Origin: an uncultured Candidatus Saccharibacteria bacterium
GTDB lineage: Bacteria; Patescibacteriota; Minisyncoccia; Minisyncoccales; CG1-02-41-26
DNA: 24,886 nt
Assembly (NCBI GenBank): GCA_964409215.1
Contig: CAYPCL010000002.1
Span: forward strand, 1-24,886
Direction: 5' to 3'
Part shown: positions 17,768 through 20,335 of the stretch, one piece after another
How positions within the stretch are numbered: the first letter of the stretch is position 1
Layout: each line of letters begins with the position of its first letter
Program-made: the position numbers and the translations under genes
The notes under the pieces: generated by a model
Told to the model about the DNA's origin: nothing
Database searches by the model: none
Seen by the model: the letters and a program-made list of their open reading frames with translations, nothing else

Positions 17768-18388
17768 TTAAATAAAGGGAACTCCGACAATTAACTCAAA
17801 AAGGAAATTCACAATCGGAACTATGAATCGGAAAAGAAAGAAAATAAAGAATATTAAAATAAGAAGACCGTAGCGGCTCAAATTCACTTTTAACTGATTG
17901 TACTTTTCGGGCAGAAGGGCAAAGAGAATATGGGAGCCGTCCAAGGGAGGAATGGGAATTAAGTTAAAAATAGCTAAAAGAAGATTGACCCAGATAATGA
18001 AGCCGAAAGCGATAACAATGTTTTCCCCCGAAGGAATTTTCAGCCAGGGAATAAATCTCAAAAGAAGGCCGAAGAAAACAGCTAAGGATATATTAGCCAG
18101 AGGACCGGCAGCAGCCACTTTGGCTTCGGCGAATTTTCCTCTTAAATTGAAGTTGTTGACCGGAACCGGCTTAGCCCAGCCGAAAATAATTCGGGACTGA
18201 AAAAGAATCAACATTAAAGGAAGAAGAACCGAACCAAAGGGATCAAGGTGCTTTAAAGGATTCAAAGTCAGCCGGCCCGCTTCCTTGGCTGTGGGATCTC
18301 CCAATAAATCAGCTGCCCAGCCGTGGGAGATTTCATGAATAATAACTGAAAAGAGGAAGATAATAATAATTAAAATATATTCAATCAT
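17768..18388 (-). CDS. Site-2 protease family (M50) intramembrane metalloprotease
   Basis: HEISH (HExxH), GDPT, AGPLAN, FNLIPIPPLDG; hydrophobic. Confidence 0.95.
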   Translation of the reverse strand: MIEYILIIIIFLFSVIIHEISHGWAADLLGDPTAKEAGRLTLNPLKHLDPFGSVLLPLMLILFQSRIIFGWAKPVPVNNFNLRGKFAEAKVAAAGPLANISLAVFFGLLLRFIPWLKIPSGENIVIAFGFIIWVNLLLAIFNLIPIPPLDGSHILFALLPEKYNQLKVNLSRYGLLILIFFIFFLFRFIVPIVNFLFELIVGVPFI

Positions 18389-18393
18389 AACCC

Positions 18394-18449
18394 TTGAAAA
18401 AAATTCAATTTAATAATAGTATTATAAACATATGTCTAAAGTTTGTAAA
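18394..18449. promoter_or_regulatory. Overlapping divergent promoters for rpmB/tRNAs (+) and the site-2 protease (-)
   Basis: Plus: TTGAAA 18394-18399, 17 nt, TAGTAT 18417-18422. Minus: TTTACA 18449-18444, 17 nt, TATAAT 18426-18421. Confidence 0.6.
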
Positions 18450-18659
18450 ATCTGCGGGAAAGGATCTCGAGTCTTTGGAGTAAGAAAAAAACTCCGGGGC
18501 AAGTATAATCCTACTGCCAAAAAAAGAAAGTATCCCAATCTTCAGTGGCTTCGGGTACCTGAAGATATAAAGCTCAAAAAATACAAACCCTACGCCGGTC
18601 AGAGAATTAAAGCTTGTTCCAAGTGTATTAAAAGACTTTCCTTAAAAAACGGGGTATAG
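18432..18659 (+). CDS. rpmB: 50S ribosomal protein bL28 (zinc-binding form)
   Basis: MSKVCKICGK...KRKYPNLQW...IKACSKCIK. Confidence 0.9.
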   Translation: MSKVCKICGKGSRVFGVRKKLRGKYNPTAKKRKYPNLQWLRVPEDIKLKKYKPYAGQRIKACSKCIKRLSLKNGV

Positions 18660-18723
18660 TGTAATTGGCTAACATACACGCATGGGGTGCGTGCGATTCT
18701 CGGTTCAAGTCCGGGTACCCCGA
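18650..18723 (+). tRNA. tRNA-Pro(GGG), CCA not encoded
   Basis: Acceptor CGGGGUA/UACCCCG, A73, D-loop GG, anticodon arm CACGC-AUGGGGU-GCGUG, T-loop UUCAAGU. C1-G72 and A73 fit Pro identity. Confidence 0.95.
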
Positions 18724-18729
18724 ATAATT

Positions 18730-18802
18730 GCGGGTGTCGTATAATGGCTTATTATTTCTCCCTTCCAAGGAGAAGATGGCGGTTCGAATCCGCTCACCCG
18801 CT
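18730..18802 (+). tRNA. tRNA-Gly(TCC), CCA not encoded
   Basis: Acceptor GCGGGUG/CACCCGC, U73, anticodon arm UCUCC-CUUCCAA-GGAGA, T-loop UUCGAAU. Confidence 0.95.
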
Positions 18803-18807
18803 TCATC

Positions 18808-18838
18808 AAAAAAAGGGCCTCTTTTGGGGACCCTTTTT
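18808..18838. terminator. Probable bidirectional intrinsic terminator
   Basis: AAAAAGGG-CCTCTTTTGGGGA-CCCTTTTT, between the convergent tRNA-Gly and the ubiquitin-like gene. Confidence 0.7.
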
Positions 18839-18840
18839 GA

Positions 18841-19089
18841 TTAAGAAAATAAACCGGGATAAATCCTCGAATAATAAAAAGGAATAAAAATAACTTTGTC
18901 TTTATCCTTTAATTCTTCATCCCAGCTTACTTTTTTATTGTTAACCAAAACAGCATCACTGGGCTCAACTTTTAAATAAGACACTCGGAAAATTACCCCG
19001 ACGGTTATTTTCCTGTTATTTAAAACTTTGACTTGATGGTTATTAAAACTTCCCAAACGACTGACTTCTATTATTGTTTCTTCTGACAT
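18841..19089 (-). CDS. ThiS/MoaD-like (beta-grasp, ubiquitin-like) small protein without C-terminal GG
   Basis: AVLVNNKKVSWDEELKDKDKVIFIP matches the ThiS/MoaD pattern (VxVNxxxxxxdxxLkdGDxVxIiP). Strong SD AGGAGGAG before ATG 19089; 82 aa. Confidence 0.65.
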   Translation of the reverse strand: MSEETIIEVSRLGSFNNHQVKVLNNRKITVGVIFRVSYLKVEPSDAVLVNNKKVSWDEELKDKDKVIFIPFYYSRIYPGLFS

Positions 19090-19171
19090 TACTCCTCCTT
19101 TTTTAAAGTTGTTAAGTTGCTGAACACTACTTTCTAACATATTAAAAATTCTTTTTCAAATTGAAAAATTA

Positions 19172-19189: not shown

Positions 19190-20335
19190 ATGCATATCAT
19201 CTGCCATTATGCCGAAATAGGCCTTAAAAAGGGCAAGAGGAGGTTTTTTGAAGAAAAACTGGTTGAGAATATCAAATCGACTTTAAAAGCGGAGTCTTTT
19301 AAGCAGGTTAAAAGAATCTCCGGCCGGATTATTATTGAATTTGAATCGGACATCTCTCCTTCTCAATGGGACAAAATTAGTGTCCTATTAAAAAATGTCT
19401 TTGGAATAAGCCATTTTTCCCTTGCTCAAAGCTTTCAGCCGGAAATAGAAGAAATTAAGAAAAAGGGATTGGAAATTTTAAAAGAAAAGGAATTTAAAAC
19501 CTTTAAAATTGAAACTCAGCGCTCCAATAAGAATTTTCCCCTCACTTCTCCGGAGATAAACCGGCAGATTGGAGAACATGTATTAAATAATCTTAAAAAG
19601 AAAGTGGATTTGGAAAATCCCGATTTAACTCTTTTCATAGAAATAGTTGATAATTATTCTTTTATTTATTCGGAAAAGATAAAAGGCCAAGGAGGTTTGC
19701 CGGTCGGCAGTTCGGGAAAAGCCCTCTGCCTCCTCTCCGGAGGAATTGACTCTCCCTTGGCCGCTTATTTGGCTATGAAAAGAGGGATTAAATTGGAGCT
19801 TATCCATCTTTACTTTGACAAATCTTCAATAAAGAAAGTCAAGGAAATAGCTAAAATCCTCAGTAAATTCCAAAAAAAGATAAAACTTCATTTGATTCCC
19901 TTCAAGGAGATTCAAGAAGAGATAGCCCGAAAACTTCCCTTGGAGACAAGATGCCTCCACTGTAAGAGAATGATGCTGAAAATTGCTCGGGAAATCGGAG
20001 AAAAGGAAGGGATTAAAACAATAATAACCGGGGAGAATATCGGCCAGGTTGCTTCCCAAACTTTGGCTAATTTAAGGACAATTGAATTAGGCAATGATTT
20101 TCTAATCTTAAGGCCCCTCTCTTGCTTTGATAAAAAAACAACCATAGAAAAAACCAAAGAAATAGGAAGTTATGAAAAATCAATTATTAAGGAACTCCCC
20201 TGCCCTATCGTTCCCGAGCATCCTGAAACAAAAAGCTCTCCTGAGAAAATAAGGAGAGAGGAGGAGAAAATAGACCGGGAAAAACTTGTTAAAAAAGCTT
20301 TGGCAGAATCTGAAGACCTCGTTATTATAAGTTAG
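19190..20335 (+). CDS. thiI: tRNA 4-thiouridine(8) synthase ThiI (NFLD-THUMP-PP-loop, no rhodanese domain)
   Basis: HYAEIGLKKGKRRFFE, THUMP TFKIETQRSNKNF...VDLENPD, GQGGLPVGSSGK, PP-loop LLSGGIDS, TGENIGQVASQT, LRPL. Confidence 0.96.
   Translation: MHIICHYAEIGLKKGKRRFFEEKLVENIKSTLKAESFKQVKRISGRIIIEFESDISPSQWDKISVLLKNVFGISHFSLAQSFQPEIEEIKKKGLEILKEKEFKTFKIETQRSNKNFPLTSPEINRQIGEHVLNNLKKKVDLENPDLTLFIEIVDNYSFIYSEKIKGQGGLPVGSSGKALCLLSGGIDSPLAAYLAMKRGIKLELIHLYFDKSSIKKVKEIAKILSKFQKKIKLHLIPFKEIQEEIARKLPLETRCLHCKRMMLKIAREIGEKEGIKTIITGENIGQVASQTLANLRTIELGNDFLILRPLSCFDKKTTIEKTKEIGSYEKSIIKELPCPIVPEHPETKSSPEKIRREEEKIDREKLVKKALAESEDLVIIS

Follow-up and report, generated by a model that had tools for sequence, protein, structure and literature searches.

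The rpmB Stop Codon Lies Inside tRNA-Pro(GGG) in a Patescibacteria Genome, Probably as a Tolerated Side Effect of Genome Compaction

Introduction

RNase P cleaves at position +1 of a tRNA. In mitochondria, tRNAs reportedly serve as punctuation between genes with incomplete stop codons, as is said to have been described by Ojala, Montoya and Attardi in 1981, and a terminal U or UA is completed to UAA through polyadenylation.

Overlaps between a CDS and a t(m)RNA gene of the same orientation have been put forward as candidate sources of non-stop mRNA in bacteria (Hudson, Lau and Williams, 2014, Front Microbiol 5:421, PMC4131195). In that survey of 2031 bacterial genomes, 250 of 115,660 t(m)RNA genes (0.22%) were overlapped, and the smpB-ssrA overlap, for which a feedback logic was described, was found nowhere but in Candidatus Carsonella ruddii. 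Similarly, selC genes nested in or overlapping selB were predicted in Alpha- and Gammaproteobacteria, and it was proposed that tRNA processing gives a non-stop selB mRNA, with expression of the protein and of the tRNA as alternatives (Mukai, 2021, Int J Mol Sci 22:4605, PMC8124441). In the secG-leuU transcript of E. coli, the tRNA is released by one RNase P cut, which leaves 14 nt past the secG stop, and the half-life of the secG mRNA after this cut is under 30 s (Mohanty and Kushner, Nucleic Acids Res 36:364, PMC2241853).

Here, we describe a related arrangement in a 24,886-nt stretch of Patescibacteria DNA, called the window. The gene rpmB, coding for ribosomal protein bL28, is a functional CDS that ends inside a valid tRNA-Pro(GGG) gene on the same strand, which is the arrangement of the class of Hudson et al. 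(2014); as in that class, maturation of the tRNA is predicted to remove the stop and to leave a substrate for trans-translation. The pair differs from the known members in that it belongs to Patescibacteria, outside the top families in the table of that paper. It resembles selB/selC in having a bacterial tRNA gene inside the 3' part of an ORF, but in selB/selC the tRNA works together with the protein and the ORF can contain it entirely, whereas rpmB and tRNA-Pro share only 10 nt; both cases are bioinformatic predictions. With secG-leuU, the locus has in common the order of a small CDS, a tRNA and a terminator, and the 14-nt spacer of secG-leuU is near the 12-nt median of the rpmB relatives. 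However, the secG fragment retains its stop, whereas a spacer of -10 means that the rpmB stop is lost, and secG-leuU has been shown experimentally, whereas for rpmB/tRNA-Pro the cut is a prediction. The likeness to mitochondrial punctuation is that tRNA excision sets mRNA 3' ends and that gene ends abut or overlap tRNAs. It is a resemblance and not membership, as the cut end of rpmB (...AAAAAA) has no U.

Structure of the rpmB/tRNA-Pro Junction

The features of the unit, in window coordinates and with the basis of each, are as follows.

18394 to 18422, plus strand: promoter-like TTGAAA-17-TAGTAT (consensus scan, 9/12 matches; a consensus match only)
18432 to 18659, plus strand: rpmB (bL28), single copy, 75 aa, TAG stop at 18657-18659 (ORF, homologues, PDB chains, genome search)
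Between 18649 and 18650, plus strand: predicted RNase P cut (RNase P is known to cleave at tRNA +1)
18650 to 18659, plus strand: overlap of rpmB and tRNA-Pro, 10 nt (ORF, ARAGORN, Rfam)
18650 to 18723, plus strand: tRNA-Pro(GGG), 74 nt, no encoded CCA (ARAGORN, Rfam, cloverleaf in the minimum-energy fold)
18730 to 18802, plus strand: tRNA-Gly(UCC), no encoded CCA (ARAGORN; Rfam, 58.8 bits, cut-off 29)
18810 to 18840, plus strand: terminator-like hairpin GGGCCUCUUUUGGGGACCC, flanked by a 5' A tract and a 3' U tract (minimum-energy fold)

The 3' end of rpmB reads ...AAA AGA CTT TCC TTA AAA AAC GGG GTA TAG, with AAC at 18648-18650. From the ORF and the ARAGORN and Rfam ends, the overlap is exactly 10 nt. 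Position C1 of the tRNA coincides with the last base of the Asn73 codon, the codons of Gly74 and Val75 and the stop also lie within tRNA positions 1-10, and the TAG itself forms U8-A9-G10. The 5' strand of the acceptor (18650-18656) is paired with 18716-18722 in the minimum-energy fold. An earlier, sequence-only reading of the window had placed the acceptor strand at 18650-18656 and U8 in the TAG stop and had given a 10-nt overlap, and every structural statement in it proved correct. The tRNA boundaries, which it had left to dedicated callers, are 18650-18723 in ARAGORN, and the same ends were obtained with Rfam RF00005 (53 bits, cut-off 29, full model, positions 1-71). C18650 pairs with G18722 (C1-G72), and the discriminator A73 is A18723; C1-G72 with A73 is typical of bacterial tRNA-Pro. 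With two callers giving equal ends, a GGG anticodon, C1-G72 and A73, the window tRNA is a bacterial tRNA-Pro. A spacer of 6 nt separates it from tRNA-Gly(UCC).

The -10 element TAGTAT (18417-18422) ends 9 nt upstream of the rpmB ATG, and a Shine-Dalgarno sequence is not evident, suggesting that the rpmB message may be nearly leaderless. Between the rpmB ATG and the tRNA, no further plus-strand promoter-like site was found at the scan threshold, and there is no room for a terminator between rpmB and tRNA-Pro. The hairpin at 18810-18840 also appears in a weak Rfam alignment and is absent from the list of the simple terminator scan. On the minus strand, a promoter-like TTTACA-17-TATAAT (18449-18421) overlaps the rpmB promoter-like site.

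Identity of bL28 and Conservation of the Junction

The window rpmB ORF had no Pfam match at the default threshold, and the family models scored below their cut-offs (PF00830, E 0.83, 10.1 bits, cut-off 27; TIGR00009, E 3e-4, 21.1 bits, cut-off 48.3). Its identity is settled by a chain of homologues, a structural alignment, invariant motifs and the single copy. There are 118 homologues of 50-126 aa, many of which are named L28 or have PF00830; they belong mainly to Patescibacteria, e.g., Gribaldobacteria, Nealsonbacteria, and Paceibacterota. Residues 1-68 align with mycobacterial bL28 chains in the PDB, such as 5o60_Y (E 5e-3), and C5, C8, C62, and C65 and the motifs KYNP and YPNLQ are invariant among the homologues. 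The genome of the window (G000; 533 kb, 65 contigs, 97% complete) has one rpmB copy, and a search of 61 genomes, G000 among them, gave a bL28 match in 58. By homology, then, the window ORF is a divergent Patescibacteria (CPR) bL28. Its C-terminus is ...RLSLKNGV, and close homologues stop 2-4 residues sooner, past the conserved KCIKRL motif. At several other loci (L014/L039, L015/L041, L016/L049, L043, and L106), bL28 has a Lys/Glu/Pro-rich C-terminal extension and a length of 91-112 aa; among these, L049 also terminates inside the tRNA.

The junction was compared with that of L111, an independently assembled relative whose 304-kb contig comes from another metagenome. The two rpmB genes differ at 21 of 225 bases, of which 19 are synonymous (dS 0.55, dN/dS 0.02), and the two bL28 proteins differ by two substitutions. 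The tRNA-Pro genes show 0 differences over 74 nt, and one base differs in the 52 nt upstream of rpmB. By these substitution patterns, rpmB and tRNA-Pro are both clearly under purifying selection. It is extremely improbable that a sequencing or assembly error masks an earlier rpmB stop or that either gene is a pseudogene. Such an artefact could be suspected from the A6 run at 18644-18649 directly before the tRNA, from a TAA at 18643-18645 that is one base out of the rpmB frame, and from the shorter C-termini of the close homologues. However, L111 keeps the frame, the A6 run, the stop and the whole junction despite the 21 substitutions elsewhere in rpmB, so the overlap is not a sequencing error, which the sequence-only reading had named as the finding that could undo it. 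A 44.9-kb contig of run X3, from an L111-type strain that may not be independent of L111, covers 18380-18802 gap-free, with no insertion or deletion at the junction; contigs of runs X1 and X2 did not extend across it. The low dN/dS and the well-scoring, unchanged tRNA also argue against an artefact, and analogous overlaps are present at nine other loci.

Linkage of rpmB and tRNA-Pro in Relatives

A total of 139 distinct rpmB loci were collected from species genomes and metagenomes. In 115 of them, tRNA-Pro(GGG) is the next gene on the same strand after rpmB, at a median distance of 12 nt from the rpmB stop. These linked loci fall into the following gap classes.

Overlap (below 0): 10 loci
0 nt: 5 loci
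1-5 nt: 20 loci
6-10 nt: 17 loci
11-20 nt: 24 loci
Over 20 nt: 39 loci

Tight spacing is therefore frequent (42 loci with a gap of 0-10 nt). The conservation of the overlap, which had also been left to a comparison of relatives, is partial: it is common to the window and L111, but in 105 of the 115 linked loci the rpmB stop lies upstream of the tRNA. Across this order-level group of Patescibacteria, the conserved linkage could reflect selection for co-expression. The 23 loci that have no tRNA behind rpmB and the loci with long gaps may represent insertions behind rpmB. At L133 (1501-1700), ARAGORN gives a tRNA-Leu(UAA) 1 nt past rpmB, where the others have tRNA-Pro(GGG).

The ten overlaps are of three lengths.

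10 nt: window, L111, and L049; the stop is at tRNA positions 8-10
15 nt: L098, L116, L139, L148, and L168; the stop is at tRNA positions 13-15
21 nt: L131 and L171; in L131 the stop is a TAG at tRNA positions 19-21

The overlap of the window lineage is common only to the window and the L111-type relative, and the two closest relatives that do not overlap have rpmB and tRNA 70 and 101 nt apart. Most overlapping loci have nearest relatives that do not overlap, so that overlaps arose or reverted at least six times. Alignment indicates how an overlap can come about: L131, L148, and L116 are without exactly 33 nt (the last 8 codons, the stop and the spacer) that are found in L146 and L132, and this deletion fuses the conserved KCIK core straight to tRNA position 1. 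At the start of the tRNA, L131 is distinguished from L148 by T13C alone, which turns TAA into CAA and shifts the stop to the TAG at positions 19-21. A TAG is present at positions 8-10 in 71 of the 115 linked tRNAs, positions 13-15 read TAA or TAG in 87, and all ten overlaps terminate in the tRNA frames of positions 8-10 or 13-15. Since the tRNA has early stops in two of its three frames, running into it alters just a few C-terminal residues of bL28. A comparison of L131 (1620-1770) with L146 (1584-1750) shows the same rpmB core next to very different tRNA-Pro sequences, with overlap states of -21 and +6, suggesting that the boundary between rpmB and the tRNA has undergone recombination or replacement.

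Overlaps in the Genome of the Window

The genome contains 36 tRNA genes and one tmRNA gene, and about 15 of these lie at most 27 nt from the stop of a co-directional gene upstream. Five of the 37 overlap a real upstream gene and four more are at gaps of 0-2 nt, as listed here.

rpmB and tRNA-Pro(GGG): 10-nt overlap
Conserved 110-aa CPR protein (L179, 810-1142) and tRNA-Trp (L179, 1133-1206), contig C22: 10-nt overlap, TAA at positions 8-10
smpB (L174, 1468-1941) and tmRNA (L174, 1934-2308), contig C14: 8-nt overlap, TGA at positions 6-8
Pilin-like gene (L176, 185-739) and tRNA-Lys(CUU): 1-nt overlap
M48 peptidase gene (L178, 164-1063) and tRNA-Ser(GGA), minus strand: 1-nt overlap
DivIC gene and tRNA-Gly(CCC): gap 0
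GPI gene and tRNA-Leu(CAG): gap 0
FtsX gene and tRNA-Gln(CUG): gap 1
FtsH gene and tRNA-Ile(UAU): gap 2

Compared with the survey background (Hudson et al., 2014), overlaps are about 60-fold more frequent in this genome (P about 2e-8), and when, as in the survey, only Pfam-positive upstream genes are counted, 3 of 37 overlap (P about 7e-5). The protein upstream of tRNA-Trp matched no Pfam or NCBIfam family; it has 217 homologues, and the one in L111 (P0120) is 110 aa as well. In both 1-nt overlaps, the G of the TAG is G1 of the tRNA. An RNase P cut there would leave UA at the mRNA end, which is a further likeness to mitochondrial punctuation.

The 3' end of smpB reads ...AAT CGG GGA TGA, and the 5' end of the tmRNA was confirmed by a full-length match to RF00023. 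Among the 20 related genomes that have smpB beside ssrA, 13 have the smpB stop within the tmRNA gene, with overlaps of 8 nt in seven, 18 nt in four, 28 nt in one and 30 nt in one. In this respect the group is unlike the class as described by Hudson et al. (2014), in which the smpB/ssrA overlap was confined to Carsonella.

Proposed Expression of the Unit and Alternative Explanations

Taken together, the overlap is a real one between two functional genes. It probably arose from genome compaction, and it is probably tolerated as a side effect of packing and does not serve as a dedicated switch. In this order of Patescibacteria, rpmB and tRNA-Pro(GGG) form a conserved, tightly spaced unit that is most likely co-transcribed, in the order promoter, rpmB, tRNA-Pro, (tRNA-Gly), terminator, with the promoter and terminator as predicted sites. 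The genome codes for the factors that would act on such a transcript, namely RNase P RNA (RF00010, 139 bits), RnpA (PF00825, 85 bits), SmpB (PF01668, 172 bits), a tmRNA with the tag ANLSNEPAYAYA, and a PolyA_pol-family enzyme of the CCA-adding type (C5, 4869-5249). A single transcript would carry rpmB, tRNA-Pro and tRNA-Gly, and ribosomes trailing the polymerase would terminate at the UAG while the 5' strand of the tRNA is unfolded and uncut. A ribosome on the last rpmB codons would cover about the first 20 bases of the tRNA, so that termination and the folded tRNA could not occur at the same time. Folding of the tRNA would come later, and RNase P would then cut between 18649 and 18650, freeing the tRNA. 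The upstream rpmB fragment would then end in ...UUAAAAAA, with neither an in-frame stop nor a protective hairpin. This fragment would be expected to decay fast from its unprotected 3' end, and ribosomes left on it would be rescued by tmRNA-SmpB. The sequence-only reading had proposed that tRNA maturation leaves a non-stop rpmB mRNA, and this appears sound, judging from the cut end and the encoded RNase P, tmRNA and SmpB. Its further statement that each transcript yields either message or tRNA does not follow; translation could come first and the cut afterwards, as in secG-leuU of E. coli (Mohanty and Kushner, PMC2241853), so that a single RNA molecule could supply both products.

Other ways of ending rpmB were rejected. 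A -1 frameshift at A_AAA_AAC (18644-18650), which has the form of a slippery site, would, as read by eye, lead into the frame CGG GGT ATA GTG TAA, which ends deeper, at tRNA position 15, and no plausible slip site was found for a +1 shift to the TAA at 18643-18645. Stop completion by polyadenylation was also rejected, since the cut end has no U and added A residues give Lys codons only.

The tRNAs and rpmB might instead be expressed by separate routes, with a promoter inside rpmB as the main source of tRNA-Pro and tRNA-Gly and with rare processing of the read-through rpmB RNA, in which case the overlap would be of little consequence to rpmB; we consider this very unlikely. A perfect -10 hexamer, TATAAT, does occur within rpmB at 18504-18509, with a weak -35 element. 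However, these six bases are the codons of the invariant Tyr25-Asn26, and TAT-AAT is under-used at this position in the relatives (39 of 115, where local codon usage predicts 65; the P value is only indicative, the relatives not being independent). This under-use could mean that spurious promoters are avoided. The codon pair is also no commoner where the tRNA is tightly linked (19/65 vs. 20/50), and L111 has TACAAT instead. Being under-represented and unrelated to tRNA linkage, the hexamer was rejected as a conserved tRNA promoter. Moreover, without a terminator before the tRNA, any rpmB transcript holds the whole tRNA and would still be a substrate of RNase P.

It is quite unlikely that the overlap is a selected device for coupling or decay, as the sequence-only reading had proposed, in which translation of the final rpmB codons has to compete with tRNA folding and RNase P, these set the yield of bL28, while trans-translation removes bL28 excess, by the same logic as in the selB/selC model of Mukai (2021). 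Several observations fit such a device. By the geometry, passage of the ribosome and the tRNA fold would be mutually exclusive at 18650-18670, rpmB and tRNA-Pro are linked in most loci (115/139), the RNase P and trans-translation machinery is all encoded, and the same idea is in print for selB/selC and smpB/ssrA. In addition, rpmB is essential and present in one copy, and the survival of its overlap to dS 0.55 could be a sign of usefulness. Against this, the overlap is scattered, with a separate rpmB stop in 105 of the 115 linked loci and wide gaps (70-101 nt) in the nearest genera. Overlaps arise through simple deletion and point mutation, and unrelated genes in the same genome (those of the peptidase, the pilin-like protein and the 110-aa protein) have the same layout. 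No regulation-specific sequence feature was found at the rpmB/tRNA-Pro overlap. A clade-wide conserved overlap between a partner protein and its tRNA, which marks the switch of Mukai (2021), is not seen here, as the overlap occurs in 10 of the 115 linked loci. With at least six origins and similar packing throughout the genome, the scatter speaks for the tolerated side effect of compaction over a built-in device. To our knowledge, bL28 and tRNA-Pro have no specific partnership.

Significance of the Overlaps

The idea of a non-stop mRNA made by t(m)RNA maturation is already published (Hudson et al., 2014; Mukai, 2021), and rpmB/tRNA-Pro is a well-documented example of it and not a new mechanism. 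What is new is the rpmB/tRNA-Pro pair with its recurrence, the density of overlaps in the genome, and how widely smpB and ssrA overlap in this CPR order; the literature search found no CPR-specific account of tRNA/CDS overlaps. Our results indicate that an essential single-copy ribosomal protein gene can hold its stop inside a tRNA across substantial divergence, and that overlaps are tens of times commoner in these tiny genomes than in bacteria at large. Annotation pipelines commonly score a CDS/tRNA overlap as an error, and in CPR genomes they may therefore shorten or discard genes such as this rpmB. If the cleavage is confirmed, these organisms would offer a natural system for asking how far routine expression depends on ribosome rescue. 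A broader reading, that RNase P sites routinely define mRNA 3' ends in this order as a counterpart of mitochondrial tRNA punctuation, is quite unlikely. If it were true, rpmB and smpB would be expressed from messages that are stop-less by design, trans-translation would be a constitutive step of gene expression, and t(m)RNA maturation would feed back on the supply of ribosomes and of the rescue factor.

Neighbouring Genes

The gene thiI lies at 19190-20335, 467 nt beyond tRNA-Pro (PF02568, E 3e-61). The sequence-only reading had pointed to ThiI as the enzyme modifying U8, encoded about 0.5 kb away. The distance is right, but a functional link is unsupported and was rejected: ThiI acts in trans on tRNAs generally, and thiI is found downstream in four lineages only (the window, L111, L003/L032, and L017/L042) among roughly 139 loci, which makes it an incidental case of local synteny. 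The hairpin sequence at 18810-18840 is missing downstream of tRNA-Gly in L111. In the window, a ThiS-like ORF (18841-19140, minus strand; PF02597, E 0.002) is convergent with the tRNA unit, and the hairpin, as a predicted structure, may terminate both this ORF and the rpmB-tRNA-tRNA unit.
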